From the IMG/VR virus record IMGVR_UViG_3300021058_000001, positions 1-40,676 of that record: DNA of 40,676 bases. One strand, 5' to 3'. Below the pieces are notes generated by a model. The model had not been told where the DNA came from and searched no databases. It saw only the letters and a program-made list of their open reading frames with translations. Made by a program: the position numbers and the translations under genes. Each line of letters opens with the position of its first letter. Within the stretch, counting starts at the first letter, position 1. Below are positions 7,621 through 37,878 of this stretch, in pieces. This DNA is from a virus.

Positions 7621-8006
7621 TGGCCCGCCTCCACCTTGGCCAGGGCGGCGGCGGTCAAGCCCTCCAGCCCCCAAAGGCAGTCGTCCCAATAGGTCAGGTG
7701 ACGCCAGCGAAGGCGCAGCGCCTGTTCCGCCTCGCCGCCGCCCAGCGACCCGTCCACATCGGCCGCGGCGAAGGCGGCCAGCGGGATCAGATACAGGTCA
7801 TGTTCGCGCGGTATGCAGCCGATCTCGGCGCAGGCGAAGGCGACGCCGGCCCGCACGGTCTCCAGCGGGTCAACCGCCGTCGGCTCCGGCCAGGCGACCA
7901 TGGCCGCCTGTATCCGGTCGCGGCGCTCGGCCAGCCCCCGCGACAGGGCGGCCAGCGCCAGCGCCCGATCGGCGCGCTCGATCGCCAGCTGGTCAATCCC
8001 GCTCAT
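7617..8006 (-). CDS. Hypothetical protein downstream of tail fiber (129 aa)
   Basis: ATG overlaps the tail-fiber stop (ATGA). The position suggests a fiber accessory or assembly role. No motif recognised. Confidence 0.5.
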   Translation of the reverse strand: MSGIDQLAIERADRALALAALSRGLAERRDRIQAAMVAWPEPTAVDPLETVRAGVAFACAEIGCIPREHDLYLIPLAAFAAADVDGSLGGGEAEQALRLRWRHLTYWDDCLWGLEGLTAAALAKVEAGQ

Positions 8007-10801: not shown

Positions 10802-10840
10802 GGGGTCATCCTGCCGCCCCCGACAGGCCCGCAACGCGCG

Positions 10841-13501
10841 TCAGCGTTCGGTCGGCTCCAGCGCCGCGCCAAGGTCCGGCGCCCGCTCCGGCGCCCCGCC
10901 CTGCGGCCACCACTGTTCCTGGCCGTACTCCCGCTCCATCCGCTTGCGGCGCCGCGCGAAGGCCTCCTCGGCCTCGGGGTCCAGAAGGCGATGCAGGTTG
11001 TCGGTCACCCCCCGGCTGAAGGCCGTGCGCAGCCACCACACCGTCGCCAGCGGCGTATAGCGCCCGACATAGTCGGCCGCGTCCCGCCCGATCCGCGCGC
11101 CCGCCACCGCCTCGCCCAGCTCGTCGCCGCGGCCCAGGTCCGCGCCGATTTCCAGCGCGTTCCCGATCGTCAGATTGAAGCTGTCGCCGACGAACTGGCC
11201 GACCGGACCGAAGGCCGCCGCCTGGGCGTTCAAGCCGTTTCGCGCCTGCGCCGCATACAGGAAGTCGCCGAAGATCCCCAGGCCGCCGCCCTGCATCATG
11301 GCCGCCCCCCAAAAGCGGGCATCGTCCATCTTGCGCGGGTCATTGCCCTTGATGATTTCCCGCAGTTGGATCGCCACCGCCCCGGCGATAGTCAGCGAGA
11401 CCAGCATCCCGGCGGCATAGCCCGCCGTCATGGCCACGCCGCCCGCCCGGTTGCCGCGCAACGCCAGCTCCTCGCCGAACAGGTGCGAGGCCGTCATCGA
11501 AAAGCCCCGGAACATGGCCCAGCTGCGCCGCGCCTCGCCCGATACCGTCCCCGGCCGGCTCTGCCCCATAAGCTTGGCGCGGGTCCACAGGGTCGTCTCC
11601 GGGCTGACCAGCCGCGTCTCCATCTCGATCGCCTCGCCCAGCCGCGCGGCCAGGGTCTCGTCGGCGACGTCCATGGGTCTCAGGAATTTGGCCCCGGTGC
11701 GCGGCTCCCACACCGGCGCCGCGCGGATGATCCCCCACGACGCCTCGTCAAACCCCCGCGCCTCCAGCCACTGACCCAGCATCCGGTCGCGCTCGTCCCC
11801 GGCGGCCAGGTCCTTCAGCGTCATGCCCCGCACATCGTGAAGGGCGCCCATGAACTCGAACCGGAAGGCCCGCTTTCGCGCCGCCACATAAGGCGTGAGG
11901 CCCTGCAGCCGCATCGTCGCCGCCGGCATCCGCCGGGCGAAGGCGTTGGCCTTGCCGTCGGCCCGCTCGCCGACCGTGACCAGTCGCAGGTTGTCGCCCG
12001 TCGCGCGCACGAAACCGTCGGTCGCCTGCTCGATGATGAAGCCGCTGCGCCGCGCGATCGCCCGCTCGGCCGGTGACGCCAGCAGCCGCACGAATTCCGC
12101 CATATCCCCGGTCCGCGACAGGCCGGTGAAGCTGCGCGCCATGGCGCCGAACATGGGCGCGCTCGGCATATCCGACAGGATGGCGGACCCCAGCGACACC
12201 CCCGTCAGCCACGCCCGCGCCGTCATTCCGGCCTGGGCGAGCTTGCTGTTCACCGGGGCGGCGGCGTCGCCGTTGAAATGCGCCAGCATATCGCGGGCGG
12301 TCTGGACATAGCTGCGCGCCCGGTCCGAGGCGCCCTGCACCCCGCCCGCCTCCTCGATCTGGGCCTCGCGCTGGGCGAAGGCGGCCAGCCATTCGAATTG
12401 ATGGTCGGGGTTCGGCCCCAGTATCTGCATCTGCGCGATATCGCGGGTCATGTCATCGACATGGCCCATCATCGTCTGGAAGGCGTCGGCCTCGCCGAAT
12501 TCCGATTGCGCCGCCAGCCAGTCGTCGGCGGATTTGAAGACCAGGAACCGTTCCTCGCCCCGCTGTTTGGCCAGCATCCCGCGCCCCAGCCGCTCGCCCG
12601 GTCGGCGCTTGATCGCGCCGCCGGTGGCGATATTGGCCCAGACCTCGCCCAGGACGGCCTTCAGCCGGGCGTCTGTGAACGGCAGGCCGGTCACCCGGTC
12701 GACCATGGCCGTCCGGTTCAACCGCGGCAGGATCCCCGCCACCCATGCGTCCTTGCCGACCTTGCGCACCTGGGCGGCGTCCCACCGTTGCGGCAGGCCC
12801 CATTTGTCCAGCTTGCCGATCGCGCCCCCGGCGGCGTTGAAGCCGTGCCTCAGCCATTCGGCCGTCTGGCCCCACGCCTCGGCCATGCCCTTCGCGGCCA
12901 GGTCGCCGGTGTCCTCGCCGAACGCCTCGCGCACAAGGTTTTCCAGCCGCGCGCGGCCCGGCCGGTCGAACCCGGTCCGCGTCTCGAAGGCCTCGATCAG
13001 CCCGGCCATCATGGCGTCGGCCTGACCGCGCAGATAGCGATACCGCCCCTCGATCGAAGAAAACGGCCCGCCCGACAGGCCGCCCTTGTTCTCGACCAGC
13101 AACTCGAGAGCCCGCGCCGCGATCGCGCCGCCGCTGCCCGGCCCCTTGGGCGGGGGCGCCCCGCCCTGTATCCATCCGTCCTTGGGCGGCTTGGACCCGC
13201 CGCCGCCGCCCAGGGCCTGCACGCCCTGATAGCCGCGGCGCGTCTTCAGGCCGGCGACGCCCTCCAGCACGGATCGCCGGGCGCGGATCATCACCGCCCG
13301 GCGCCGGGCGGCCTCGATCCGCTCGCCCTCCAGACGGCGCATCGTCGCCTCGGCCGCCATCCGGTCGGCCTCGACCGTGCCGAAGGTCTCGCTGAAGGCG
13401 GAAAAGGCGTCGTCATAGGCTTCGCGCGCGACGCCCGCCGTGTCCTCGTCGAACTCGCCCGCCGCCGCCGCCTCGTCGATACAGCCCCGAAAGGTCCCCA
13501 T
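10841..13501 (-). CDS. Large internal virion / DNA-ejection protein with C-terminal hydrophobic segments (886 aa)
   Basis: It sits between the internal-protein genes and the fiber. It has Gly-rich linkers and C-terminal TM-like segments (GVAMTAGYAAGMLVSLTIAGAVAI and GAAMMQGGGLGIFGDFLYAA). Confidence 0.6.
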   Translation of the reverse strand: MGTFRGCIDEAAAAGEFDEDTAGVAREAYDDAFSAFSETFGTVEADRMAAEATMRRLEGERIEAARRRAVMIRARRSVLEGVAGLKTRRGYQGVQALGGGGGSKPPKDGWIQGGAPPPKGPGSGGAIAARALELLVENKGGLSGGPFSSIEGRYRYLRGQADAMMAGLIEAFETRTGFDRPGRARLENLVREAFGEDTGDLAAKGMAEAWGQTAEWLRHGFNAAGGAIGKLDKWGLPQRWDAAQVRKVGKDAWVAGILPRLNRTAMVDRVTGLPFTDARLKAVLGEVWANIATGGAIKRRPGERLGRGMLAKQRGEERFLVFKSADDWLAAQSEFGEADAFQTMMGHVDDMTRDIAQMQILGPNPDHQFEWLAAFAQREAQIEEAGGVQGASDRARSYVQTARDMLAHFNGDAAAPVNSKLAQAGMTARAWLTGVSLGSAILSDMPSAPMFGAMARSFTGLSRTGDMAEFVRLLASPAERAIARRSGFIIEQATDGFVRATGDNLRLVTVGERADGKANAFARRMPAATMRLQGLTPYVAARKRAFRFEFMGALHDVRGMTLKDLAAGDERDRMLGQWLEARGFDEASWGIIRAAPVWEPRTGAKFLRPMDVADETLAARLGEAIEMETRLVSPETTLWTRAKLMGQSRPGTVSGEARRSWAMFRGFSMTASHLFGEELALRGNRAGGVAMTAGYAAGMLVSLTIAGAVAIQLREIIKGNDPRKMDDARFWGAAMMQGGGLGIFGDFLYAAQARNGLNAQAAAFGPVGQFVGDSFNLTIGNALEIGADLGRGDELGEAVAGARIGRDAADYVGRYTPLATVWWLRTAFSRGVTDNLHRLLDPEAEEAFARRRKRMEREYGQEQWWPQGGAPERAPDLGAALEPTER

Positions 13502-13505
13502 GGTC

Positions 13506-16500
13506 TCAGCCCTTCCCCGGCGAACAGGCGTTCAAATGGTCGATCGCGCGATTGAGGCCCGCTTCCTCATCCGGCAGGTCATCGAACAGGCCGGGCGGCG
13601 GGCCCTCGGGCTCGGGCGCGGTCCGCGCATAGCCTTCGCGCAGGGCCGCGCGGACGGCGGACCGATAGTCGCCATACTCGACGTGACCCGTCGGACCCTG
13701 TTCATCGAAATAGGTGACGCGGCCTTGCCCGGCCTTCTCAAGGTCAGGTCCGACCACGACGCCGCGACCGTCTGGATTGGTCAACCGGACCGACCCGCCC
13801 TCGGCCGCGATCTCGTCGGCCTCGGCGTCCAGCCGCTTCATCCGCGCCGTGGTCTCGGCGATCAGCTTGTCCAGCGTGTTCGCCTCGGCCTCTCCGACCG
13901 CCCGCGCGGCGATCCGCTCCACGGCCTCGGCCCGCATCGCCTCCATATTGGCGCGGTTCACCGCGTCGATTTCCCGGCCGTCCGACAGGCGGCCAGCGGC
14001 GAGCGCCCGGTCGTAGGCGTCGATCAGGTCCTCATCCATGACGCCTTCGCGGTTGGTGCCGATCGCGTCGGGGTCGTTGATCTTCTGCCAGGCCACCGCG
14101 TCCGAACGATATTGAGCCTCCGCTGCGGCCTTCTCCAGCTCGGCAATCCGCGCAGGGGCGAAGGCCCCCTCGACGGCCTCCGCGCCGTTGCGCCAGTGAA
14201 CCTCGGCCCGGATCGTCTCGACGCCTTCGCGGGCCGCCATCGCGACCCTGTTGTTTCCCTCGGCGATGAAGGCCTCGCCCCGGTGATTGACCATGACCAT
14301 GATCGCCGGGGGGTCCTGCCAGCCATTCTCCGCAACCGAAGCCGCCAGACGGTCGAACTTACCGCCGCCCGGCGCGGGCCGCTCGCCCTCGACACCCTCC
14401 AGGCCCTTCAAGGCCGCGACGGGCAGGCGCATTTCCTCCTTCAGCCCAGCCGTCGCAGTCGTCGCCCCTCGCAAGCGACGGCCGTTCAAGCCAGTCGGCG
14501 AGGTGCGCCCGTCCGCTTCTAGGTCGGCGGCTTCCTGCTTTCTGGCCACCCAATCGCCGCCGGGGTTGTCCTGCGTGAAACTCTCGGGTCGGGCCGCTGC
14601 CTCGGTCGCCCGCTGCACGTCCGCGCGGATCGGCGTTTCGAGCCAGGCATCCTCCGGCTTCGGCTCGGCCTGCGCCTTCTGTCCCGCGCCGCCCGGCGTG
14701 TCGAACGCCTCGGCCGCCTCGACGGCGGCGGGCGCGGGCGGCTTGGGGTTCAAGGCCACGGCCCGGCCCATGTCGTTCAACTCGCCCGCCTCGACCGCCG
14801 CACGGATGCGCTGGATCAGGCCCTTGGACGCCGCCGCCGGGGTCATCTTGCGCAGGGTCACCGCCTCGGCCGCCTCGGTGAAGGCCTCGCCGATTTCGCC
14901 GCTGCGCAGCGCCAGCCGGGAAACCAGCTCGCCCGCCGCCCGGTCGATCGCCAGCCGGGCTTCGTTGTCGTTCCGCGCCAGTATGTTGCCGCCGGCCTCG
15001 ATGGCCTCGGCGTGCCGGACCAGCTGGGCGTTGATCCGCGCATCCCGGCGCAGCCCGGCCAGCACCGCCTCGCGGATGCGGCCCCGGGCGATCACCGTGC
15101 TTTCGCGCGGCAGGGCGCCGAACAGGTCGCCCTGTATGCCCTCCGTCGCGATGAAGTCGTCCAGCATCGCTTCCTGTATGAGGGCGCGCGCCCCGTCGAC
15201 CGACCCCGGCTCGGCCTTCTGCAACAGGGCGACAAGGTCCGCCTGAATGTCCGGCCGGTCGCCGGCCATCTCGCCCAGGGCGGCGCCGTACCGCTCGGGG
15301 ATCAGGCCGTTCACCACGGCCCGGAACGCCGCGTCGGACAGGCTGGCCAGCTGGCGGGCCTGATGGATGAAGTCGCCGGTGATCGGCAAGGATCGGTCGC
15401 GCAGGGCGCCCGGCGCGTCGCGGAACAGCTTGGCCGCGTCCATGATCGTTCCGCTGCCCTCGCGGATGTTCTTCAGGCCCGCGACCACGCGCACCTCCCG
15501 CGCGGTCCAGCCGTCGGCCTCGCGCAACAGGTGGCCGTCGAGCCGGGTCCCTTCCCAGCCCTGCTCGACCATGCGCCGCGCCAGCCCCCGGCGCTGGTGG
15601 CCGTCGGCGACGAACTGGCGGCCCTGAAGGTCCTCGAAGACCAGGATCTTGCCCGACGCCGTGGCGTCCCATTGCTCGATCCCGCGCAGCCGCCCGGTCA
15701 CGCCCTCGGCGTCCGCGTCGGCCTTGTACTGGAACCGCTCGGCGTCGACCTCCAGCCGCATGGGATCGAACTGGCCGGACCAGATGGTTCGCCCGCGATA
15801 ATCGGTCGGCGTCAGACCGCCCGCGCCGACCGTCGCCCCGCCCGCCGAAGCGGGTTGCGATGGGCTAACACCGCCTAACGCCTCCGGCCCGAACAGGTCG
15901 TCAAGCTCCCGCTCCGGCTCGATCGTCGGCAGTACGCCCCGGTCCAGCGCCGCCCGGTCCGCGTCGAAGTCGCGGCCGGGGCCGATGACGGCCTCGTCCT
16001 CCAGCAGACGGTCCAGCGCCCGCGCCGTTCCCCGGTCGGCCGGATCGGCCGATGCGGCCAGCCGCCGCCCGGCCCCGCGCCATATCGACGCCGCCACCGA
16101 CCCGGCGCCCTCGAACACGACGCCTCCGCCCGCGCCGAACAGGATATCCAGCCCGGCTTCTCCGGCGCCGTATTCCGGCCCGCCGAAGCGCCGCGCATCG
16201 GCCCCGCGCGCGGGAACGTCCAGCGCCTCCTGACCGGCCGCCGCGCCGCCCTGAACCATCATACGGGTGAGCAGGGGCCGTCCGGCGCCCCAGCCGCCGG
16301 TGGCGATGGCCACGCCGATATTGGCCGGGTCGCTCATCGTCGCGCCGATCTGGCCGGTGAAGGCGCCGAACGCGCCGCCGACGCCGCTCCCGGCCGCCTC
16401 GTCCGCGCGCGCCCGCGTGGCCCGGAATTGGGCGTCCAGCCGCGCCGCGATTTCCGCCCGCGTCTCGACGCCCGCCAGCAGGGCGGGGTTCTTCGCCCGC

Positions 16501-16871
16501 TCGGCCTCGATCATCGCCTCATAGGCGTCATCCTCCATCAAACCCGGACGGCCCAGGATCGCGGCGTTGATCGCTTCAGGGTCGAAGGTGATCCGGTCCA
16601 GCAGGGACTGTTCCGACGCGCCCGGCGTCACCCCGGCCAGACTGCGCGACAATTCCAGCCGCCGCCCCAGCCGACGCTCCAGGTCACGATGGCGGCTCCA
16701 CAGCTCGCCGTCCGTCGCCTCATAGCGGGCGTTCCGGCGGCGCGTTTCCCAGCCGTCCTCATAGTTGCGCTGCACGGCATCCCAGAACGGCACCGGCGCG
16801 GCCGGCGCCACGCCCTGTTCGTCCGGCCGGGCCCAGCTGTCCCGGCGAATGGCCCACGACTGCGGCGGCAT
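13506..16871 (-). CDS. Large internal virion 'polyvalent' protein with two ParB/Srx-like domains (~1121 aa)
   Basis: ATG at 16871 overlaps the upstream stop (TTG 16874 is an alternative). ParB-like motif 1 is RFQYK...GKILVFEDLQGRQFVADGHQRRGLARRM. Motif 2 is PPAIMVMVNHRGEAFIAEGNNRVAMAAREGVETIRAEV. The N-terminal part is Gly-rich and hydrophobic. It occupies the T7 gp15/16 position. Confidence 0.65.
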   Translation of the reverse strand: MPPQSWAIRRDSWARPDEQGVAPAAPVPFWDAVQRNYEDGWETRRRNARYEATDGELWSRHRDLERRLGRRLELSRSLAGVTPGASEQSLLDRITFDPEAINAAILGRPGLMEDDAYEAMIEAERAKNPALLAGVETRAEIAARLDAQFRATRARADEAAGSGVGGAFGAFTGQIGATMSDPANIGVAIATGGWGAGRPLLTRMMVQGGAAAGQEALDVPARGADARRFGGPEYGAGEAGLDILFGAGGGVVFEGAGSVAASIWRGAGRRLAASADPADRGTARALDRLLEDEAVIGPGRDFDADRAALDRGVLPTIEPERELDDLFGPEALGGVSPSQPASAGGATVGAGGLTPTDYRGRTIWSGQFDPMRLEVDAERFQYKADADAEGVTGRLRGIEQWDATASGKILVFEDLQGRQFVADGHQRRGLARRMVEQGWEGTRLDGHLLREADGWTAREVRVVAGLKNIREGSGTIMDAAKLFRDAPGALRDRSLPITGDFIHQARQLASLSDAAFRAVVNGLIPERYGAALGEMAGDRPDIQADLVALLQKAEPGSVDGARALIQEAMLDDFIATEGIQGDLFGALPRESTVIARGRIREAVLAGLRRDARINAQLVRHAEAIEAGGNILARNDNEARLAIDRAAGELVSRLALRSGEIGEAFTEAAEAVTLRKMTPAAASKGLIQRIRAAVEAGELNDMGRAVALNPKPPAPAAVEAAEAFDTPGGAGQKAQAEPKPEDAWLETPIRADVQRATEAAARPESFTQDNPGGDWVARKQEAADLEADGRTSPTGLNGRRLRGATTATAGLKEEMRLPVAALKGLEGVEGERPAPGGGKFDRLAASVAENGWQDPPAIMVMVNHRGEAFIAEGNNRVAMAAREGVETIRAEVHWRNGAEAVEGAFAPARIAELEKAAAEAQYRSDAVAWQKINDPDAIGTNREGVMDEDLIDAYDRALAAGRLSDGREIDAVNRANMEAMRAEAVERIAARAVGEAEANTLDKLIAETTARMKRLDAEADEIAAEGGSVRLTNPDGRGVVVGPDLEKAGQGRVTYFDEQGPTGHVEYGDYRSAVRAALREGYARTAPEPEGPPPGLFDDLPDEEAGLNRAIDHLNACSPGKG

Positions 16872-19492
16872 CAACGCGCCTCCAGCACGGCGCCCGGCAG
16901 GCGGCGCGACAGGAGACCCCGGAAGGCCTCGCTCTCGATATCGAACTCGAACGCCGACCCGCGCCGCCCGGCGACCACCTGGCCGCTCATCCGGTCCACC
17001 AGCCGGTAACGCCCGTTCGGCATGGCGCGCAGCTGATAGCCCGCCAGCCGGTTCGCCGGGATCGGTTCGCCGTTCGCATAGACCGGCCCGCGGTCGGCCT
17101 CGACCCAGCCGCGCGCGGCGATTTCCAGCGCCTCGTCCAGCCGGTCGGCCTCAAGCCAGGTCGGCGCCACCGTCACCGCGCCATTGACCCGCACCACCCC
17201 GCCGTAGCGTCGGCCGCCCTGATTGGTCGCCCCAAGGGCGCTGTTCACATAGGCGCCGGGCGGCTGCAGCCGTCCGCGCTGGGCGTCGCCGATCGCCATG
17301 TCCTCGGCCAGCGACAGGATCGCCGGCGTCAGGCCGGGCTGATCGGCCCAGGCCGCCGCGCTGGCCTGCACCACGCGGGCCACCGACGGCTCATCGCCGA
17401 AGTCCGGCGCCCGCGCGCCCTCGGCCCGCGCCGCCCGTCCGTCCAGCGCCAGCCGGACGACGTTCGCATTTCTCGGCTCCATGGCCAGCGAGGCCAGGTG
17501 CAGGTCGGCGCCCGCCACGCCCGCCCGCCCCAGCTCGTCGAAGAACTGGCGGGCGTCCGGCCCCAGCGCCGTTCCCACGGCGGCGGCCAGCGGCAGGATA
17601 TTGGCCGGGTTGTCCTCGATGGCGGATTTGTAGAAGGCGGCCTCGGCGTTATCGAGGATCCGCACCGGCACGCCGTCGCGCTGCGACAGGGCGCGCGCCG
17701 TCGCCAGCCGCTGCTGGATCGCCGCGCCCCATTGCCGCCCCGCGTCGCCGCCGTCGAACACGGCCGCGGGCGTGAACTCGGCCACCGTCGCCAGCGGCCC
17801 TCTCCGGCTGTTCCCGCGCGAGAAGTCGACCGGGTCGCTGGCGTAACCCTCCATGGACCGGCGCTGCGCCCGCTGGGCCGCGATCGCGCCTCGCACCCGG
17901 CCTTGCCGCGCCCGCCAGCCTCTCAGGTCGTCGCCGTATTTGGCCGGGTCGCGGGCGGCCAGGCTCTCAAACCACGCCATTTCCAGCGCGAGGAACCGTT
18001 CGACGTCGCCGTCGGCCTCCCGCAGGAACCGCCGCACCGGCGCGTTGTCGCCGTTGATCCCGCCGACATAGGCGGTGGCCAGGGCGGCGATGGCCAGGTC
18101 GGGGTCCAGCTGATCGCCCCCGATGGCGTCCCAATGCAGCCGCGCGACCCGGATGGCCTCGGGCCGCGTCACCTGACCGTCGCGCCAGGCGTCGGGATAG
18201 CTGGCCTCGGTGACGCCGAACTGGGCGCGGCCGCGGCCGTTGTCGTTGCCGACCAGTCCCGGCCCCTCCAGCGTGTCCAGCAGGAAGGAGGCCGCACCGT
18301 CGAAGCCGACGCCGACCCCGCCCGCGCCGCCCCCGCCGCCGCCGCCGGGGTTGCCGCCGAACCCATGCGTCAGCCGATAGTCGACCTCGGCCTGTAGCCC
18401 CACGTCGCCCGACGCCGCCGCCCGGGCGCGCAATTCGGCCTCGTCCACATCGCCGCCGTATTCCAGCGCCCGCAACAGGTCGCGGGCGCTCGCGGCCGCA
18501 GCGCCCGCCGCCGCCCGCTCGTCGGTCTCGGCCCGGTTCGCCTGTCCCTCCAGCTCGGCGCCCAGCCCGTCCATCTGCGCGGCGTTCAAACCGGCGAACA
18601 TCGGATCGCCCGCCGCCCAGCGTTCGCGCACATTGCCCGCGAAGGCGGCCTTGGCCGCCGATCCCGTCAGCTGGTCCTGGGCGTTCCTGATCCAGCTGAT
18701 CCGCGCCTGTCCCTGGGCGGCGTCCACGATCCGCGCCAGCGCCTCGGGCGAGACCGCATCCTGTCGGCTGGGGTCGGCCGCGAACTCCACGCCCGCCACG
18801 GTGAAGGCCGAACGCGGCCCGAACTGCGCCAGCTCGGCGATAAAGCCATTCAGGGCCTGGCCGACCCTCTGGCCGCCCGCCTCGTCGAACGGGGCGCTGG
18901 CCACGGCCTGCCCCAGCACCGTCTCCTGTACCGACACCGTCGAGGTGAAGATCCCGGCCGCCACCTGACGCCGGCGGGTCTGCTCGCGGGCCAGCACGCG
19001 CACCCGCGCCGTCGACAGGTCCTGCTCCAGCGCCGAATTAAGCGCGGCGTCCGCCCGCGCGTCCCCGGTCGGCTGGTTCAACAGTCCGGCGCGCACCGCC
19101 TCGGCGGCCTCTCCGAACGCCGCCGGGCTGTCGGGGTGGGCTTCCTCGACCTTGGCCAGCTCCTCCAGAAACACGCCCCGACGCTGGGTGACCCGGTGCG
19201 TCCGCAGGATGGCGTTATAGGCGTCGTCGTCCTTGGCGAAGCCGCCCCGGAAGGTCGCCTCGCCGTCGCCCTCTCGCTCGCGCCGCAGGTCATCGACCGC
19301 CGACTGTTCGCCCTTGCGCGTCAGGACCTCATCGGCCAGCGCCCCCAGCCGCCGCCCGAAGGCGTCGGCCGCGCGAGCGACACTGGCGGTCGCCGACGCC
19401 GGGACGTCGTTGGAATGGTTCGGCTGATAGACCGGGCTCGAGGTGGCGCGGCCGAAGTCGGCGCCGGGGAAGGCGGCGGGGCGTCGGGCCAT
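16871..19492 (-). CDS. Internal virion protein with embedded GH108-like peptidoglycan hydrolase domain (873 aa)
   Basis: The segment FDGAASFLLDTLEGPGLVGNDNGRGRAQFGVTEASYPDAW...TRPEAIRVARLHWDAIGGDQL matches the GH108 pattern (F...L..EGG...D.GG.T.FGI....YP...T..EA..IY...YW). It occupies an internal-protein position. Confidence 0.65.
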   Translation of the reverse strand: MARRPAAFPGADFGRATSSPVYQPNHSNDVPASATASVARAADAFGRRLGALADEVLTRKGEQSAVDDLRREREGDGEATFRGGFAKDDDAYNAILRTHRVTQRRGVFLEELAKVEEAHPDSPAAFGEAAEAVRAGLLNQPTGDARADAALNSALEQDLSTARVRVLAREQTRRRQVAAGIFTSTVSVQETVLGQAVASAPFDEAGGQRVGQALNGFIAELAQFGPRSAFTVAGVEFAADPSRQDAVSPEALARIVDAAQGQARISWIRNAQDQLTGSAAKAAFAGNVRERWAAGDPMFAGLNAAQMDGLGAELEGQANRAETDERAAAGAAAASARDLLRALEYGGDVDEAELRARAAASGDVGLQAEVDYRLTHGFGGNPGGGGGGGAGGVGVGFDGAASFLLDTLEGPGLVGNDNGRGRAQFGVTEASYPDAWRDGQVTRPEAIRVARLHWDAIGGDQLDPDLAIAALATAYVGGINGDNAPVRRFLREADGDVERFLALEMAWFESLAARDPAKYGDDLRGWRARQGRVRGAIAAQRAQRRSMEGYASDPVDFSRGNSRRGPLATVAEFTPAAVFDGGDAGRQWGAAIQQRLATARALSQRDGVPVRILDNAEAAFYKSAIEDNPANILPLAAAVGTALGPDARQFFDELGRAGVAGADLHLASLAMEPRNANVVRLALDGRAARAEGARAPDFGDEPSVARVVQASAAAWADQPGLTPAILSLAEDMAIGDAQRGRLQPPGAYVNSALGATNQGGRRYGGVVRVNGAVTVAPTWLEADRLDEALEIAARGWVEADRGPVYANGEPIPANRLAGYQLRAMPNGRYRLVDRMSGQVVAGRRGSAFEFDIESEAFRGLLSRRLPGAVLEAR

Positions 19493-19493
19493 C

Positions 19494-20024
19494 TCAGCCG
19501 CCCGCCTTGGCGAAGGTCCCGGCCACGTCCAGCCCCAGGCTCACCCAAGAACCGATCTTCTGGTTCCGCGCCGCGTTCTTCAGGCTGACCGCCCGCAGCC
19601 GCCGCTGGGCGGCGTTGGCCTCGGCGCTGTTGCGGATGATCCGGCGCTCGCGGTCGGCCTCGTCCCGCGCCGCCTCGCGCGCCGCCACGACAGAACCGGA
19701 GCCGACGTCGATCCCCATGGCGGAGGCGGCGGCCAGCTGATCGCCGGCCAGCCGGTTGAACTCGGCGTCGATCGCGTTCACCCGCTCATTGGCGACGACA
19801 TACTCCTGACGCGAGGCCAGCCGCTCGCCCCAGGCCTCCTGCTTGATCGCCTTGGCCTTCTGCAGCCCGCCCGCGAACTCCATGAGCGAACCCAGGACGG
19901 ACATTCCGCGCCCCATTCCGCCCAACTCGGCCCCGCTGGGTCCGCCGCCCCGTCCGCCGCCCGACGCGGCGCTGGCGGCCATCTGCCCGCCCTGCTTCTT
20001 GGCGAACGCCATCACCGCCTGCAT
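19494..20024 (-). CDS. Small internal virion protein (gp14-like position, 176 aa)
   Basis: ATG at 20024 with SD GGAGG. It has a Gly-rich N-terminus followed by a helical region. It lies immediately after the nozzle gene. Confidence 0.55.
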   Translation of the reverse strand: MQAVMAFAKKQGGQMAASAASGGGRGGGPSGAELGGMGRGMSVLGSLMEFAGGLQKAKAIKQEAWGERLASRQEYVVANERVNAIDAEFNRLAGDQLAAASAMGIDVGSGSVVAAREAARDEADRERRIIRNSAEANAAQRRLRAVSLKNAARNQKIGSWVSLGLDVAGTFAKAGG

Positions 20025-20038
20025 GGAAACCTCCGGCC

Positions 20039-22156
20039 TCAGCTCGTGACCGTCGCCACCAATTCTCGGATTTCCAGCGGACCGGGACGGGACTGCACCC
20101 ATTCGATCTGTGCGTCGTCCTGGAAGCCGGAAACCGGCCAGAGCCGCGTCCAGCCCTCGAAAGCATCCTCGCCCGGCCCGGCGTCCAGCAACGCGCCCCC
20201 CGGCGGCGTCTGGTCGCGCCGCTTCAACGGCACGTCGAACATCGTCTTGCCCGCCATCCCCGCCTTCAGATTGGCGGTAGGCCCCAGCCGGAAACAGATT
20301 TCGCCCGCGCGGGCGCGGCGCGATATGCCCGCGCGCGGGTCCTGCTCAAGCACGATCGGCAGGGTTCGCCCGCGCGGCTCGAACAACAGGCCGACCTCGC
20401 AGGACCGCAGGGCCTCCGTCGGCAGGGTGACCATGCCGCCCTCGACCACGGCGTCTCCCGCGTCGCCGCCGTCGATGTAGAGGCAGACCGTCCGCCCCTC
20501 CAGATGCTCCAGGCCGGAAACCTCCGTGCAGGGCCCCTCGACCAGCACGGAGGCGTCCAGCATCCGGCTTGCGTCCACCCGCTCCAGCCGGTGCGTCTCG
20601 ACGCCGTCGGCCTCGCGCCGGACGCAGACATACAGGTCGCCGGCCATTTCGCCGCCGGCCTCGGTAAAGTCCCCGTCCGTGGTCCATTGGGCGAACCCCA
20701 GGACCTCCTGACGCAACATCGCGTGCATCGCCGTCGCCGTGCCGTCCGAGCGGACGAACAGCGCCAGATTGGGCTCATTGGTCGACCGGCCGCGGCGCAT
20801 CCCGGCCGCGACGATCCCCTCGGCCAGGTGCGAGCTGAAGGCCGACAGGGCGTCGGGCTCGTATTTCAGTTGGCTTTCGTCGAACGACGTGCGGGCGATG
20901 GTGTCCGCGCCCGCCTGGATGAACAGGGCGTTGCCCTCAAGGTCCAGCACCGGCGTTCCCGCCTCGGCGCCGTCCTTGGACGATCGCAGGAAGGGCGGCG
21001 GCGGCGTGATCGGCGAGGCGGGACAGAAGAACAGGCCCGACGGCGTGAACACCTGAAGGTGGCGGCCCGGATAGAAGGCGAGGATCTGTGTCGCCTCGTC
21101 CGTGTCCAGGGTCACGTCAATACCCTTGTCGGCCTGCGCCCCCCGGGTCTGGAAGTCGAAGAAGAAGCCCAGCCGCGACGCCAGCAGCGTCGAGGGCCGC
21201 GAGGCCGGGCCGCCCAGCCACAGCCGCTGCTCATAGAAGACGCCGCACGACGGCCAGCCGCGCGTCGCGCTGATGACCGGCTCGCCGCCCGCCTTGCCCT
21301 GCGTCAGGGTCGCGACCCGCACCACGCCTTCGGCGGACGACAGGGTCGACGGCGCCATTTCGGCCAGGTCCTGCGAGGCGTTCTGGCCGGTGAAGGTCAC
21401 CGAGAATTGGTCGGTCCCCGTCGAAACAACCGAGACGCCGCCGGACCCCACATTGACCAGCGCCTGAAGCGCCGACTGGATCGACGCGGCCAGGGTCGCC
21501 TCTGTGTCGGAAAAGACGATGCTGGCCGTGGTCTCGCCCTCCAGCGTGATGTTGAAGGTGTCGCCGTTGAGATAGTCCACGAAACTCAGCTGCTGGACCT
21601 CGGACACCCCGCCCTCGCTGGCGCCGGTAAAGTCGAAGATCGGCAGGTTCTCAAGCGGCTGGGTCCGGCTGTCCCATTCCGAATGGGCGCCCTGGCGGCC
21701 GATCCGGTGCGGCGCCACCGTCGAATGGAAGGCCAGCAGGGTATCGCGGCTCTGGGCCCGCTTAACGGCCGTCACCACATCGGCGCCATAGGGCGACGGA
21801 ACCGCCGTCTTGCGCTCGCCGCGCCGGTGGACCTCGACATTGCCGTCCGTGGCGATCAGGCCATATCGCTGGTCGCCCGCGTCGAAGTCGAAACTCCAGC
21901 GCCGGTGCGCCGACAGGTCCGCCGTCTCGCGCCAGAACCGGACCTGCCCGATTTCGACGGTGGCGAGGCCCAGGTCATCGTCGCCCAGCCGGACGATCCG
22001 CCACTTCTGCGCCGTGACGCTGACCCGCGGCGCAAAGGCGAAGCGGCGGGTGCGCAGCAGCGAGCCGCCGTCGTGGCGCTCCACGGTCACCCAGCTGTCG
22101 TCCTCGGCCTGGTACTGGACCGCGATCGCATCCGTCAGGGTCGCCGGCACGGTCAC
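20039..22156 (-). CDS. Tail tubular protein B / nozzle, C-terminal major fragment (705 aa)
   Basis: GTG start overlaps the stop of 22153..22608 (GTGA). It begins in the middle of a discoidin-like jelly-roll pattern, then shows the typical nozzle body (RYGLIATDGNVEVHRRG...LLAFHSTVAPHRI). It sits after tubular A. Confidence 0.7.
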   Translation of the reverse strand: MTVPATLTDAIAVQYQAEDDSWVTVERHDGGSLLRTRRFAFAPRVSVTAQKWRIVRLGDDDLGLATVEIGQVRFWRETADLSAHRRWSFDFDAGDQRYGLIATDGNVEVHRRGERKTAVPSPYGADVVTAVKRAQSRDTLLAFHSTVAPHRIGRQGAHSEWDSRTQPLENLPIFDFTGASEGGVSEVQQLSFVDYLNGDTFNITLEGETTASIVFSDTEATLAASIQSALQALVNVGSGGVSVVSTGTDQFSVTFTGQNASQDLAEMAPSTLSSAEGVVRVATLTQGKAGGEPVISATRGWPSCGVFYEQRLWLGGPASRPSTLLASRLGFFFDFQTRGAQADKGIDVTLDTDEATQILAFYPGRHLQVFTPSGLFFCPASPITPPPPFLRSSKDGAEAGTPVLDLEGNALFIQAGADTIARTSFDESQLKYEPDALSAFSSHLAEGIVAAGMRRGRSTNEPNLALFVRSDGTATAMHAMLRQEVLGFAQWTTDGDFTEAGGEMAGDLYVCVRREADGVETHRLERVDASRMLDASVLVEGPCTEVSGLEHLEGRTVCLYIDGGDAGDAVVEGGMVTLPTEALRSCEVGLLFEPRGRTLPIVLEQDPRAGISRRARAGEICFRLGPTANLKAGMAGKTMFDVPLKRRDQTPPGGALLDAGPGEDAFEGWTRLWPVSGFQDDAQIEWVQSRPGPLEIRELVATVTS

Positions 22157-22608
22157 GGCAGAACCTCCAGCCCGCCGTCACCGCCCGTCCACGGATATTG
22201 AGGCGGCGCCGCCGACGCGCCGCCGCCCTCGGAAAAGGCGAAGTCCTCAAGGTCGATCAGGCCGATTTCCACCGGGGCGCCGAAGTCGAACTCCGCGACC
22301 ACATAAGGGTCCGTCGTCCCGACCGCCGTACCGCTCTGGAAGCCGTCGCCATTAGTCAGGCCGGCCGCCGTGCCGCCGTTCGGAACCGACACGGTCGCCC
22401 CGTCGGTCGCCACCGCCTCCAGGGTGTTGCGGATCATCGACACATGGGCGAGGCCCGGCCGCCGGTGCAGCGGCCCCTGCGGCCGGGGCATACAGTTGAC
22501 CGCCAGCGCCAGCGACGACGCATAGGCCTTCAGGTCGCGGCGGCCGATGCAGGCCGGGTCCAGCTCACCGCCGCTGAAGATCGCCTGACGAAAGACCTCC
22601 TGCGCCAT
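22153..22608 (-). CDS. Tail tubular protein B / nozzle, N-terminal fragment (151 aa)
   Basis: The N-terminal pattern FRQAIFSGGELDPACIGRRDLKAYASSLALAVNCMPRPQGPLHRRPG is typical of gp12-like nozzle N-termini. The first half of a discoidin-like domain follows. The ORF abuts the tubular A stop. Confidence 0.65.
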   Translation of the reverse strand: MAQEVFRQAIFSGGELDPACIGRRDLKAYASSLALAVNCMPRPQGPLHRRPGLAHVSMIRNTLEAVATDGATVSVPNGGTAAGLTNGDGFQSGTAVGTTDPYVVAEFDFGAPVEIGLIDLEDFAFSEGGGASAAPPQYPWTGGDGGLEVLP

Positions 22609-30913: not shown

Positions 30914-31242
30914 CCGCCCTCGCGTCCCAGCTGGGAACCGCCTTTGCCGGGCGGCTGGCTGAACACCTGAGCGGCGACGAGTGGACGGAAATGCGCCGCC
31001 GCAACGCCGCCTTGGAAGCGGGCGGGGCCTTTCTGGCTTGTGCCTCGCACGACTTCCTAGACGCCAACGACGTGATGGACGCGGCGTTTAAGTGGGTGGT
31101 CGGGCGGGCGATGGTCCTTGGCTCGGACGTTGAGGCCGGGCGCGGAACGGAAGCGCAAGCGCGGGCCGATCTGGACCTTTGCAACGCTGCGTGGACTTGG
31201 GCGCGGGCGGCATACCTGACGGCCTCGCCCGACCCGGCCTGA
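30910..31242 (+). CDS. Hypothetical early protein (110 aa)
   Basis: GTG start coupled to the upstream stop. The translation looks protein-like. No motif recognised. Confidence 0.55.
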   Translation: MTALASQLGTAFAGRLAEHLSGDEWTEMRRRNAALEAGGAFLACASHDFLDANDVMDAAFKWVVGRAMVLGSDVEAGRGTEAQARADLDLCNAAWTWARAAYLTASPDPA

Positions 31243-31304
31243 CGGCTCCGGTTATCCCCTCGGCCTCCGGGTCGGGGGGATTGCCCGAACCGCCATGCGT
31301 TCGC

Positions 31305-31329
31305 CGCCCTCGGCAATTGAGCCGGGGCG
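31305..31329 (+). promoter_or_regulatory. Conserved hairpin cassette, copy 2, upstream of ardC
   Basis: CGCCC-t-CGGC-aattga-GCCG-GGGCG, followed by GAGGGAGTTAACCCC and the ATG. It is about 85% identical to copy 1 over ~50 bp by eye. Confidence 0.7.
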
Positions 31330-31352
31330 GTCATCTTGAGGGAGTTAACCCC

Positions 31353-32255
31353 ATGACCCGCGACGATCTTTACGCCTCCGTTACCGCCTCGATCTGCGAG
31401 GCTCTGGAAGCCGGAACCCGCCCTTGGGCGCCCAGCTGGGACAAGGCCGCTTGCGGCGGCGTCGGCGCCCTGCCGCTGCGCTCAACCGGCGAACCCTACA
31501 GGGGCGTCAACGTCCTGTTGCTGTGGGGCGTGGCCATGGCCAAGGGCTACACCCAGCCGCGCTGGCTGACCTTTAAACAGGCCATTGAGGCGGGCGCCGC
31601 CGTCCGCAAGGGCGAGAAGGGCGCCCGCGTGGTCTATGCCGGTCGGCTGGTCCGTGAGGCTGGCGAGGGCGAAACCGGCGACGAGAACGGCCAGCGTCAA
31701 ATCCCCTTTCTCAAGGGCTACACGGTGTTCAACGTCGAGCAAATCGACGGGCTGGGCGCGGACTGGTTTGAGGCGGCGCGGCCCGCCCTGCCCGAACCCG
31801 AACGGGACGCGGCGGCGGAAGCCTTCTTCGCCGCCACGGGCGCGAGGGTCCAGCACGGCGGGGCCGTCGCCTGTTACGTCCCGTCCACCGATCAAATCCA
31901 CATGCCGCCGCTCGGGGCCTTCACTGATCTGGAAGCCTATTACGCGGTCCGCGCCCATGAGACGGTCCACTGGACCGGCCATAAGTCGCGGCTGGACCGG
32001 GCGGGCGGCAAGCGGTTTGCTGACAAGGGTTACGCCTTTGAAGAACTGATCGCGGAAATCGGCGCGGCGTTTCTGTGCGCCTCGCTCGGCCTGTCAGCTG
32101 AACCCCGCGCCGATCACGCCGACTACTTGGCCGGATGGCTCAAGGTCTTGAAGGAAGACAAGCGGGCGATTTTCACCGCCGCCAGCGCCGCCCAGGCGGC
32201 GGTTGATCTGCTGCACCAGCTGGCCGCGCCGGTCGCGCTGGACGTCGCCGCCTGA
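31353..32255 (+). CDS. ardC: ArdC-like antirestriction protein (ssDNA-binding N-domain plus HExxH metalloprotease-like C-domain, 300 aa)
   Basis: The N-terminus DLYASVTASICEALEAGTRPWAPSW matches the ArdC/DUF1738 signature. The C-terminal part contains HETVHWTGH (HExxH). Confidence 0.85.
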   Translation: MTRDDLYASVTASICEALEAGTRPWAPSWDKAACGGVGALPLRSTGEPYRGVNVLLLWGVAMAKGYTQPRWLTFKQAIEAGAAVRKGEKGARVVYAGRLVREAGEGETGDENGQRQIPFLKGYTVFNVEQIDGLGADWFEAARPALPEPERDAAAEAFFAATGARVQHGGAVACYVPSTDQIHMPPLGAFTDLEAYYAVRAHETVHWTGHKSRLDRAGGKRFADKGYAFEELIAEIGAAFLCASLGLSAEPRADHADYLAGWLKVLKEDKRAIFTAASAAQAAVDLLHQLAAPVALDVAA

Positions 32256-32267
32256 CGGCTCTGCTTG

Positions 32268-32292
32268 CCCGCCCGGCCTCGCGCCGGGCGGG
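32268..32292 (+). terminator. Perfect 10-bp GC hairpin after ardC
   Basis: CCCGCCCGGC-ctcgc-GCCGGGCGGG, starting 13 nt after the ardC stop. There is no U tract, so it could be an attenuator or stabiliser rather than a full terminator. Confidence 0.4.
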
Positions 32293-32313
32293 GATACAGA
32301 ACCGTTAGGTTCT

Positions 32314-32338
32314 CCGCTCTCGGCATTGGCCGGGGCGG
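32314..32338 (+). promoter_or_regulatory. Conserved hairpin cassette, copy 3, upstream of parB-like gene
   Basis: CCGCtCt-CGGC-attg-GCCG-gGGCGG. It shares the CTCGGCATTGGCCGG core with copy 1. Confidence 0.65.
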
Positions 32339-32362
32339 TCCCATGGTCGAAAGGACCTGACT

Positions 32363-34141
32363 ATGTCTGCCAAGAAAAACACCGCCGCCGCTCCGCTGGC
32401 CCGCTTCGCTCTGGCCCCGGAAAACGCCCGCCACGGCGTCGAATATGACGCCGACGGCCTCGCCGCTCTGGCCGGGTCCATCGTCGCCTTCGGGCGGCTG
32501 CTGGAACCCCTCAAGGTCTATCAGGACGGCGAGGCCCTGATGGTATGGGACGGCGGGCGCCGCCTCGCCGCCCTGCAACTGCTGGCACAGGCCGAAACCC
32601 CGCCCGCCCTGCTGGACGCGGTCGGCTATATCCTGACGGACCGCGCCGACGCCGCGCTCGCCTCTATGGCGACGTTCCTCCGCGAGCCGATGCACCCCGC
32701 CGACCGCTTCGCCGCTTATTCGGCCCTGTTTGACGCTGGCCAGACGGCGGAACAAATCGCGGCGGCTTGCGCCGTCTCCCCGCGCGGCGTGGCGCAGCTG
32801 CTCCGCTTCCGGCTGCTGGCGCCCGAAATTCTGACGGCGTTCCGCGCCGGTCGGATGGACTTTGACGCTTGCCTCGCCTTCACGCTGGACGCCGACCACG
32901 AGGCGCAGCGGGCCGTTCTGGATAGCTTCGGCGACCGCCGCATAAATGAATGGCAGGTCAAAAACGCCCTGCGATCTGACGCGGTGCGCGGCGATAGCTT
33001 CATCGCCCGCATCGTCGGGCGGGACGCCTATGAGGCGGCGGGCGGGCGCTTCCTTGTCGATCTGTTCACCGGCGACGACGAGGGCGACGAGCGTTGGCAG
33101 GACGGCGCCCTGCTCGGTCGCCTGTTTGAAGCGGCGGTCGCGGCCCGCGTGGCGGAAGCCCAGGCGGAAGGCTGGGGCGCCGTTCGCGTGGTGGAAAACC
33201 AGTATGAGACGGCCATCGGCTATCACCCCGCCGAACCGGAGGGCGAGGCCTTCACCGACGAGGAACGCGCGGGCCTGACGGCCTTCGTCGTCTATCAGCG
33301 CCACCCGGAAGCCGCGCTCGTCATTGAGGGCGGCTGGCGCAGCCACAAGGCGCAGCCCGGCGAGGCCAGCGGGACGGGCGAAGCCAAGCCCAAGCCCGCG
33401 ACGGAAGACCCAGCCCGGTGGGGCTGGGGCCATGGCGGTCACGATCTGGCGACGACACAAGCGACCCTCGCCGTCCGCTCGGCCCTGCTGGCCAATCCCG
33501 CCGCCGCCTATGACGCCCTGCTGGCGCAAATGGCATGGGACGCGCTCGGCTGGTCCGGCGAGGCTATTTCCGGCCTTCGGGTACGGGGCGGGGCCGCGAC
33601 GGAGGCGGAAGCCGACGCGCGGACGGCGTGGAAGGCCCGCCTGAACCCTGTCGACCGCGTGGCCTTCTATGGGGCGGTCGCGGCGCTGGACGCGAGCGAG
33701 AAGGCCGAACTGCTGGCCCTCTGCTTCGTCCTGTCCGTCAGCGTTCGCGAGGCGCGGACGGACAACCACGACCCGGCCCGGTGGGCGCAACTCGGCTGGA
33801 CCGCTCGCCACGCGGGCGTCACCCTGGCCGATTTCGGAACCCCGTCCGAAGCCTTCCTCAAGGGCGGCTCAAGGCCCGCCCTCCTGACCGCCGTGGCCGA
33901 TCTGGCGCCCGGCGAGGAAGTCCGTCAGGCCGAAGCGAAGAAGGGGGCGCTGGTGACCTACGTTGGCCACAAGGCGACGGAGGCGGGCGGCTGGGCGCCG
34001 CAGCTGCTCCGCGATCTGCTCACGGACCCGGCGGCGGAAAAGCCCGCCAAGGCCCCGCGCAAGGGCCGTGGACGGGGAAAGACGGAGGCGGCGGCGCCTG
34101 ACGCCGTCAACGACGCGGACGCCCTCGCGGACGCCGCCTAG
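32363..34141 (+). CDS. Large ParB/KorB-like N-terminal-domain protein (592 aa)
   Basis: ParB box LLEPLKVYQDGEALMVWDGGRRLAALQLL (GxxRxxA-type). An HTH-like region (TAEQIAAACAVSPRGVAQLLR) and a long C-terminal extension follow. It is adjacent to ardC, as in the leading regions of conjugative elements. Confidence 0.75.
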   Translation: MSAKKNTAAAPLARFALAPENARHGVEYDADGLAALAGSIVAFGRLLEPLKVYQDGEALMVWDGGRRLAALQLLAQAETPPALLDAVGYILTDRADAALASMATFLREPMHPADRFAAYSALFDAGQTAEQIAAACAVSPRGVAQLLRFRLLAPEILTAFRAGRMDFDACLAFTLDADHEAQRAVLDSFGDRRINEWQVKNALRSDAVRGDSFIARIVGRDAYEAAGGRFLVDLFTGDDEGDERWQDGALLGRLFEAAVAARVAEAQAEGWGAVRVVENQYETAIGYHPAEPEGEAFTDEERAGLTAFVVYQRHPEAALVIEGGWRSHKAQPGEASGTGEAKPKPATEDPARWGWGHGGHDLATTQATLAVRSALLANPAAAYDALLAQMAWDALGWSGEAISGLRVRGGAATEAEADARTAWKARLNPVDRVAFYGAVAALDASEKAELLALCFVLSVSVREARTDNHDPARWAQLGWTARHAGVTLADFGTPSEAFLKGGSRPALLTAVADLAPGEEVRQAEAKKGALVTYVGHKATEAGGWAPQLLRDLLTDPAAEKPAKAPRKGRGRGKTEAAAPDAVNDADALADAA

Positions 34142-37699: not shown

Positions 37700-37878
37700 C
37701 ACTCGCCGCCTTTGGGCAAATCGACGTCGATCGGGGCAGGCCCCGGCTCCCAGCTCGGCGGCAGACGGATTTCCAGCGGCCAAGCCGTTTGCGTGATTTC
37801 GAGGGGTGGATGCAGAACCGCCGCCAACACATGGCGCGCCTCGCGCCGCATCCGGCGGATTTCTCTAGGCCGCATCAT
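37699..37878 (-). CDS. Small hypothetical protein (59 aa, internal start of ORF 37699..37926)
   Basis: The ATG overlaps the upstream stop (ATGA) and its TGA overlaps the primase ATG, so it is coupled at both ends. GC3 is roughly 75% by hand count. Confidence 0.4.
   Translation of the reverse strand: MMRPREIRRMRREARHVLAAVLHPPLEITQTAWPLEIRLPPSWEPGPAPIDVDLPKGGE

Follow-up and report, generated by a model that had tools for sequence, protein, structure and literature searches.

Polyvalent proteins, which are thought to be delivered with phage DNA, were described by Iyer, Burroughs, Anand, de Souza & Aravind in 2017. Some of them carry DdrB-like ParB domains encoded by late genes beside virion proteins, and these domains have been viewed as DNases regulated by nucleoside triphosphates (NTPs), or as NTP sensors, that act early in infection (PMC5512222). 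Marks of the DdrB-like domains (Pfam PF18763) include an Asp or Asn where strand 2 ends and an additional helix with a conserved Tyr. The prototype is DdrB of phage P1, a head-packaged Dar-system protein, and the P1 Dar proteins, DdrB included, are co-ejected with DNA (PMC12810830). In the podovirus JC1, a DarB-like polyvalent protein of 4515 residues was detected in virions by mass spectrometry (PMC9144972). Here we analyze a stretch of viral DNA of 40,676 nucleotides (IMG/VR record IMGVR_UViG_3300021058_000001; referred to as the window) and in it a minus-strand gene at 13506..16871, which encodes a modular internal-virion-type protein of 1121 residues. A first-pass annotation of this gene had claimed two segments with ParB/sulfiredoxin (Srx) fold. 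Our analysis places both segments in the ParB/Srx superfamily by their predicted structures and assigns them to two separate families, one fixed in a conserved core and one carried in an exchangeable slot.

The 1121-residue count starts at an ATG, with a TTG one codon upstream, and the stop codon lies at 13506-13508. The ATG overlaps the stop codon of the upstream gene (873 residues) by 1 base and the stop precedes the start of the downstream gene by 4 nucleotides, so that the gene is part of a tightly packed operon. We located 127 homologues of the protein at E ≤ 1e-3 (the best are 72-83% identical), which establish 13506..16871 as a real gene. Their named sources are mostly Brevundimonas and other Caulobacterales, with a few other Alphaproteobacteria and Burkholderiaceae; the host of the window phage is probably Brevundimonas or a relative. 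Many homologues are found on contigs of ∼40 kb and some on far longer ones (up to 2.4 Mb), which presumably represent prophages. One homologue (P0119) is fused to a tail-tip lysozyme domain. A megablast search of the gene against 50,697 phage records returned zero matches. Sequence searches against Pfam, NCBIfam and the PDB, carried out with the whole protein, with subregions and with family profiles, gave no ParB match, and the fold assignments described below therefore come from structure prediction.

We mapped the architecture of the protein by BLAST, with counts over 120 homologues; its segments are given by residue number and by their coordinates on the minus strand. The conserved core comprises residues 1-745, and BLAST coverage of ∼110 homologues stops at query residue 745, the end of a helical stretch (residues 691-745, 14637..14801). 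A conserved C-terminal tail (residues 1091-1121, 13509..13601; …PPGLFDDLPDEEAGL…CSPGKG) is kept in 107 of the 120 homologues. Between core and tail lies an insert (residues 746-1090, 13602..14636) that is missing in 89/120 homologues, in which the tail directly follows the core to yield proteins of ∼770-790 residues. At the same position, which we term the cargo slot, ∼20 of the 120 homologues contain inserts of 87-368 residues. The identifiable ones are GNAT acetyltransferases (PF00583, PF14542), LPD3 (PF18798, 'large polyvalent-protein-associated domain 3') and PBECR3 (PF18812, a predicted RNase), and the remaining inserts are modules without identification. The insert of the window protein is among the largest in the family and is made up of one of the two ParB/Srx domains (domain 2a) and a small companion module (2b). 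The other ParB/Srx domain (domain 1) is fixed in the conserved core, and domain 2a is optional cargo in the slot.

Domain 1 (residues 355-690, 14802..15809) contains a ParB/Srx N-domain (∼residues 356-475), helices resembling the ParB DNA-binding domain, and a helical extension. Searches of Pfam, NCBIfam and the PDB with its single sequence or with a 21-sequence profile gave no ParB match, and its sole placement in PHROGs is phrog_10691 (E = 7.6e-42), a 3925-position profile of unknown function. We modeled the domain with AlphaFold2 from a family alignment (A1) whose members are 34-72% identical to the window sequence (mean predicted local distance difference test score, pLDDT, is 85.6). ParB, Noc and Spo0J account for all of the best 27 Foldseek matches of this model in the PDB (best E = 6.4e-4, with a probability of 1.00 for nearly all 27). 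The matches extend over ∼220 columns, corresponding to the nucleotide-binding N-domain plus the central DNA-binding domain of ParB/Noc, and the isolated DNA-binding-domain structures 6y93 and 6s6h match the model as well. We also compared the domain with a small ParB reference alignment, the sequences of which were verified against PDB entries 6sdk, 7bnk and 1vz0. The hhalign alignment is weak (P = 0.013, 151 columns) and runs in the expected register: ADGHQR is found opposite VAGERR, (A)LKNIREGSGT…DAAK opposite (L)LENLQREDLSP…EEAQ, and the helices 'ARxLAxLSdeAF…NGxIP…G' opposite 'LRLLxLPxxv…xGxLSxGH' of the ParB DNA-binding domain.

Three motifs stand out in domain 1. RFQYK (residues 379-383, 15723..15737) has Q381 and K383 invariant in A1. 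The segment FVADGHQRRGLA maps to residues 420-431 (nucleotides 15579-15614) and includes DGHQR (residues 423-427, 15591..15605), which is invariant in A1 and lies opposite the GERR of GERRxRA, the cytidine triphosphate (CTP)-binding motif of ParB (PMC7333895). KNIREGSG (residues 467-474, 15450..15473) is located opposite ParB ENLQRE, and its columns are invariant or near-invariant in A1. Compared with Bacillus subtilis ParB, domain 1 retains R427 (R80) and N468 (N112), whereas E78, R79 and R82 are changed to His, Gln and Gly and E111 to Lys (K467). The replacement of GERRxRA by DGHQRRGLA and of E111 by Lys identifies domain 1 as a ParB homologue with a remodelled pocket, rather than as a canonical CTPase. 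DGHQR and FQ[YF]K are each found in 118/120 homologues and KN[ILMV]x[E/S] in 114/120; retention at this level among sequences with an overall identity of 35-70% argues for a functional pocket, and the remodelled pocket appears from these alignments to be under selection.

Domain 2a (residues 760-917, 14121..14594) represents a distinct, widespread phage family with the ParB/Srx fold and an N-terminal DNPGGxW helix extension. The family has no model in Pfam or NCBIfam. Pfam ParB_N and TIGR00180 match neither domain 1 nor domain 2a at E ≤ 10, and ParB_N touches just 2 of 29 domain 2a relatives (E = 0.016). The AlphaFold2 model calculated from a domain 2a alignment (A3) has a pLDDT of 95.9, and its best 48 Foldseek matches in the PDB all belong to the ParB/Srx superfamily, mostly over 80-105 columns: sulfiredoxin (the best, with E = 5e-3), PadC, ParB, Noc, KorB, SbnI, free serine kinase, Atu1540 and Osa. 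In BFVD the best matches are phage proteins labeled 'ParB/Sulfiredoxin' in UniProt (E = 2.6e-9, query-normalised TM-score of 0.65, 160 columns). Alignment to the ParB reference by hhalign is again weak (P = 0.0025, 79 columns) and puts AEGNNRVAMAA opposite VAGERRFRAAK.

The segment IMVMVNHRGEAFIAEGNNRVAMAA of domain 2a maps to residues 857-880 (nucleotides 14232-14303). It contains EGNNR (residues 871-875, 14247..14261), positioned opposite AGERR of ParB, with R875 corresponding to R80. EGNxR is present in 145 of 149 domain 2a representatives (EGNTR in 97, EGNNR in 30 and EGNHR in 17), and a near-invariant asparagine, N862 (VNH), closes the strand that precedes it. Invariant in A3 are N769, P770, G771, G772, W774, T805, G826, E830, D840, G865, E871, G872, N873, R875, A879, G896 and E898, and the many fixed polar residues among them (T805, E830, D840, E871, N873, R875, E898) suggest that domain 2a is an enzyme rather than a scaffold.

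A word-indexed homologue search produced 1 match with the insert and 25 with a domain 2a profile, and an exhaustive HMMER search with a threshold of E ≤ 1e-3 recovered 560 representative clusters, of which 267 have E ≤ 1e-10. Domain 2a either stands alone, as a solo protein of 150-200 residues, or is a module in proteins of 2000-5270 residues, some of which also carry ADP-ribosyltransferase (ART), PARP-like or LPD39 domains. Domain 2a is thus a mobile domain. A solo protein of 157 residues is encoded at 6001..6474 of a 155-kb metagenomic contig from a T4-like large phage (L004), where its neighbours are small genes, endonuclease VII and a T4 gp59-like gene; domain 2a is therefore not restricted to virion modules.

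Both ParB/Srx-fold segments of the first-pass annotation stand, since Foldseek lists for the two models are uniformly ParB/Srx in the PDB, and RFQYK, FVADGHQRRGLA and IMVMVNHRGEAFIAEGNNRVAMAA all fall within the nucleotide ranges it had assigned to them. A chance resemblance of the motifs was also considered and is ruled out by the uniform structural match lists together with the near-invariant motifs. The annotation had further left conservation of the ParB/Srx pocket residues as a check. This holds for the G-x-x-R pocket arginine of the superfamily, located where the helix after the central strand begins; it is kept within a [D/E]-G-x-x-R motif as R427 (DGHQR) and R875 (EGNNR) and is invariant in A1 and A3. 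It does not hold for GERRxRA. A helix-turn-helix DNA-binding domain follows the N-domain in the model of domain 1 and is missing in domain 2a, and hhalign of one domain against the other gives P = 0.0015. As judged from these alignments, domains 1 and 2a are different, distantly related families. Apart from the window protein, they are found together only in one close relative (P0001) and, independently, in a 4562-residue protein (P0152). While polyvalent proteins as such were known, three points are new: two ParB/Srx families without database models, now defined by alignments and confident models; the co-occurrence of both in one virion-type protein; and a clearly delimited cargo slot in a podoviral internal-virion-type protein family.

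The remainder of the slot is occupied by module 2b (residues 945-1088, 13608..14039), in which a small domain (…SVRLTNPDGRGVVVGP…RVTYFDEQGPTGH…) comes after stretches that are probably helical. The module has no Pfam match. A phmmer search detected it in P0123 (2.8e-9), P0137 (1.8e-11), P0142 (5.7e-10) and P0180 (3.6e-6), all values being for the domain match, and in these proteins it stands alongside domain 2a in an order that differs from the window protein. The recurrence of 2a with 2b in at least four unrelated proteins and in another order suggests that they form a functional pair.

At the other end of the protein, the N-terminal region (residues 1-354, 15810..16871) is conserved in the family, has no recognisable domain and terminates in a Gly/Ser/Pro-rich linker (residues 331-356). 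Gly-rich hydrophobic segments had been noted here in the first-pass annotation. We find two, both weakly hydrophobic: residues 159-198 (AAGSGVGGAFGAFTGQIGATMSDPANIGVAIATGGWGAG; 16278..16397), with no charged residue between positions 159 and 180, and residues 235-263 (16083..16169), the only place at which the 19-residue Kyte-Doolittle mean reaches at least 1.0. A second, less used insertion point is seen near the linker, at approximately residues 330-355 (nucleotides ∼15807-15881), with insertions in P0016, P0049, P0103-P0107 and P0109; the insert of P0016 gives a weak GNAT-like match.

The gene is embedded in a block of minus-strand structural genes. Going downstream along this strand we located the portal (25433-27025, phrog_332), the major capsid protein (23347-24273, phrog_3437), tail tube A (22609-23274, phrog_394), tail tube B (20039-22156, phrog_376) and, two genes upstream of the 1121-residue gene and in a gp14-like position, a small 202-residue internal virion protein (19494-20102; phrog_418 'internal virion protein', E = 5.1e-5). 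The gene for the 873-residue protein (16871-19492) has no family match: even though its position among internal-virion-type genes is conserved, searches of Pfam, PHROGs, NCBIfam and PDB sequences with its product were all empty. The product includes a long Gly run (GGNPGGGGGGGAGGVGVG). Downstream of the 1121-residue gene lie a conserved 886-residue podoviral virion structural protein (10841-13501; phrog_684, E = 4.1e-128), with tblastn matches in 118 phage records, and a 943-residue protein (8003-10834). We call the latter fibre-like mainly because of its position, since its faint match to the T7 tail-fibre N terminus (E = 0.68) is below any threshold. Searches of PDB sequences with both large neighbours of the 1121-residue gene were empty. 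Also on the minus strand are a repressor-like gene (37875-38615; phrog_35 'transcriptional repressor') and two primase-like genes for 406 and 722 residues (34527-37783; phrog_510, and phrog_35358 and phrog_21086). Tail tube B seems to be split into two frames, 22156..22608 covering positions 7-61 of the phrog_376 profile and 20042..22156 covering positions 53-708. The open frames overlap at ∼22156-22177, and the split could stem from a frameshift, from misassembly, or from an insertion that comes with a programmed shift.

A comparison with other phages shows that this order is shared. Dunaliella viridis virus SI2 has the identical gene order, and its 792-residue protein contains domain 1 at residues 355-680 (E = 4e-99). 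In Ruegeria phage 45A6, domain 1 is found at residues 731-1047 of a 3912-residue protein encoded after the tail genes (E = 9e-110). Cyanophage P-SCSP1g has an analogous order, with gp11/gp12 tail-tube genes upstream of a 2563-residue protein that carries domain 1 at residues 458-776 (E = 1.3e-36); for the corresponding genes, the P-SCSP1 authors could offer no more than a guess, based on how large the genes are and where they lie, that their products are internal virion proteins (PMC9860041). The first-pass annotation had placed the 1121-residue protein in the position of the T7 core proteins gp15/gp16, and this agrees with the gene order, in which the tail tubes and the small internal virion protein precede the gene and the fibre-like gene follows it. 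With the order common to the window and SI2, and with domain 1 encoded after the tail genes in 45A6 and P-SCSP1g as well, gene position makes a good case for a role inside the virion or in ejection. The domain 1 carriers of P-SCSP1g (L003, 7618..15309; Prochlorococcus phage), 45A6 (L002, 6805..18543) and SI2 (L008, 8966..11344) have hypothetical-only annotations, and SI2 has a typical podophage structural module.

A third ParB-like gene had been reported in an early operon. The gene exists (32363..34141, 592 residues, motif WDGGRRLAAL; canonical ParB profile, E = 5.8e-10), but the operon assignment did not hold: it is located on the plus strand beside ArdC, outside the main minus-strand block, and the minus-strand early open reading frames that we searched contain none. 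The 592-residue protein also matches phrog_1033 'ParB-like partition protein' (E = 2.8e-11) and, all below cut-off, the NCBIfam models PRK13832, Noc and parB_part, with a likeness to the plasmid 'partitioning' model PRK13832. Its WDGGRRLAAL is nearer to the canonical ParB motif than are the motifs of domains 1 and 2a. Directly upstream, also on the plus strand, is an ArdC-type anti-restriction gene (31179..32255), which combines ArdC-N (PF08401, E = 1.6e-36) with a polyvalent-type zincin peptidase, MPTase-PolyVal (PF18818, E = 6.7e-52), and matches phrog_7245 (E = 1e-89). The pair is oriented opposite to most other genes identified in the window. A minus-strand open reading frame of 562 residues (32123..33811) opposite the 592-residue gene has no matches and is probably spurious.

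From these results we lean toward the view that the 1121-residue protein is a polyvalent internal-virion protein of modular build, from a podovirus or prophage of ∼40 kb with T7-like structural gene order, and that it is packaged and ejected and joins a ParB-like DNA module to an effector slot. Packaging, ejection and enzymatic activity are what we infer in this reading. The protein would sit in the capsid alongside the other large core proteins and would exit the virion together with the DNA. Its conserved ParB-like module would then bind DNA, most plausibly the entering phage genome, under the control of a bound nucleotide. The slot domain would serve as an exchangeable nucleotide-using effector (an NTPase, DNase or phosphotransferase) directed against host DNA or defences, and the GNAT, PBECR3 and LPD3 domains may do an equivalent job in sister phages.

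Several observations weigh against this view. Sequence searches of Pfam, PHROG and the PDB revealed no homology of the protein to T7 gp15/gp16 or to structurally characterised ejection proteins, and we found no virion proteomics in the literature that covers the protein or a homologue, including work on P-SCSP1, phiGT1 and Brevundimonas phages. The PDB Foldseek matches reach only modest E-values (6e-4 and 5e-3), and sequence profiles lend weak support. The canonical CTP-binding arginines of GERRxRA are mostly replaced, by DGHQRRGLA in domain 1 and by EGNNRVAMA in domain 2a, and a ParB-type CTP clamp is thus not to be assumed. Two homologues (P0108 and P0110) have lost FQYK and DGHQR and kept the ParB-like module, which hints at a structural role of the core domain that is independent of the pocket. 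Finally, solo domain 2a genes are also found outside virion modules, for example beside endonuclease VII. The pockets of P0108 and P0110 look degenerate.

An alternative that we consider unlikely is that one or both ParB/Srx domains act as NTP-regulated, sequence-nonspecific DNases, like Osa or ParB-methylase, and attack the DNA of the host or of a competitor, by nicking or degrading it, immediately upon entry. Osa is indeed among the structural matches of domain 2a, and the slot is otherwise filled by enzymatic effectors; the best matches of domain 2a are, however, sulfiredoxin, ParB and serine kinases rather than nucleases, and we identified no metal-binding motif. According to Iyer et al., DNase and NTPase activities are found in several ParB-like domains, and a role of this kind is considered for the polyvalent ones, but these authors prefer NTP sensing or degradation to a plain DNase (PMC5512222). 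A DNase packed beside its own phage genome would also need tight control.

It seems quite unlikely that domain 1 is an inert, ParB-derived DNA-binding module that holds or organises the DNA end in the capsid or the ejection channel, with dispensable slot domains. Such an anchor would fit with the DNA-binding-domain-like helices included in domain 1, with the loss of most GERRxRA arginines, with the two homologues that lack the pocket motifs and with the 89/120 homologues that have no cargo; the retention of DGHQR, FQ[YF]K and KN in 114-118 of the 120 homologues speaks against it.

A bolder version of the delivery scheme strikes us as distinctly improbable. Here domain 1 would be a virion-delivered, nucleotide-gated ParB-type clamp that loads at the front of the incoming phage genome and serves to protect, pull in or organise that DNA, and would be a conserved ejection part in a broad and partly abundant set of podoviruses (Caulobacterales prophages, the virus SI2 group, Ruegeria phage 45A6 and the cosmopolitan MPP-C cyanophages, e.g. 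P-SCSP1). The slot would be a plug-in site for anti-defence enzymes, including the new nucleotide-using domain 2a family with a host target.

We regard as very improbable that the protein is not ejected, and is instead a tail, assembly or intracellular late protein of the structural operon whose ParB domains would have tasks such as packaging or partition inside the producing cell. Known core proteins show no homology, and solo domain 2a genes occur in non-structural contexts, but the gene is tightly coupled to its neighbours, its position among internal-virion-type genes is conserved in several podoviruses, P0119 is fused to a tail-tip lysozyme domain, and packaged polyvalent proteins are known from P1 and JC1 (PMC12810830, PMC9144972). 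A canonical CTP-clamp ParB is rejected, as GERRxRA is not retained.

If the protein is packaged and ejected, as in the polyvalent internal-virion reading that we favour, it would represent a compact, genetically tractable podoviral core protein with a fixed ParB-like DNA/nucleotide module and an exchangeable effector slot. The slot variants (ParB/Srx, GNAT, PBECR3, LPD3 or empty) would then form a natural series on what polyvalent domains do in the first minutes of infection, roles that have gone largely untested since 2017. One of the two unmodelled ParB/Srx families spans at least 560 sequence clusters, and domain 1 annotates a formerly blank region in a presumed internal virion protein of MPP-C cyanophages.

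How does the protein compare with known systems? As with T7 gp15/gp16, its gene comes after those for the tail tube and the small internal virion protein and ahead of a fibre-like gene. It shares a large size with these proteins and with the DarB-like JC1 gp69 of the Bcep22-like podoviruses (PMC9144972), and, like JC1 gp69 and core proteins, it presents accessory enzymatic-type domains on a virion-type protein. It differs from T7 gp15/gp16 and JC1 gp69, with which it has no detectable sequence similarity, by having no lytic transglycosylase domain.

Domain 1 resembles the CTP-dependent clamps ParB, Noc and KorB in that ∼220 of its columns can be superposed on ParB, Noc and Spo0J, N-domain and DNA-binding domain together, and the 'LxxLP/S…G' pattern of the DNA-binding helices can be aligned. 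It differs from them by DGHQRRGLA in place of GERRxRA and Lys in place of E111, and by being embedded in a 1121-residue virion-type protein with no ParA or parS known; sequence searches do not link it to ParB/Noc/KorB. Domain 2a recurrently matches sulfiredoxin, SbnI and free serine kinase (ATP/ADP-dependent phosphotransferases) and Osa (ATPase/DNase) over 80-100 columns, and like them is of the single-domain, nucleotide-pocket type. It is set apart from this group by an identity of 14-21% and by its own N-terminal DNPGGxW helix and C-terminal helix, and EGNNR replaces the catalytic-Cys motif GGCHR of sulfiredoxin.

The closest parallels are found in the DdrB-type polyvalent proteins. Differences exist here as well: domains 1 and 2a and 29 domain 2a relatives have no match to PF18763, hidden Markov models built from A1 and A3 find no match in the ParB region of P1 DdrB, and single-sequence hhalign of domains 1 and 2a against DdrB gives P = 0.3-0.4, a comparison of low power in which canonical ParB against DdrB also yields P = 0.55. 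Unlike DdrB-type proteins the 1121-residue protein contains no MPTase domain, unlike DdrB domain 1 adds ParB DNA-binding-domain-like helices, and the window phage is a podovirus with T7-like order, whereas P1 is a myovirus. In common with DdrB-type proteins, a ParB/Srx domain is part of a multidomain phage protein encoded among late/virion genes, the homologues of the 1121-residue protein make use of LPD3, PBECR3, GNAT, ART and LPD39, and no ParA partner is seen among the window open reading frames that we scanned. A G-N-x-R type motif is present in both (SGNGR in P1 DdrB, EGNxR in domain 2a). The DdrB-like context is shared as well, with occurrence in phage late genes beside virion proteins, solo or polyvalent and without ParA. 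Domains that accompany relatives of domains 1 and 2a in one chain include LPD23, LPD39, ART, PARP and tail lysozyme. The polyvalent, modular nature claimed in the first-pass annotation is borne out by LPD3, PBECR3 and GNAT in the same slot and by domain 2a next to ART, PARP and LPD39 elsewhere. Taken together, with two ParB/Srx domains and 2b in one chain and with orthologues that carry LPD3, PBECR3 or GNAT in the same slot, the 1121-residue protein belongs to the polyvalent-protein class.

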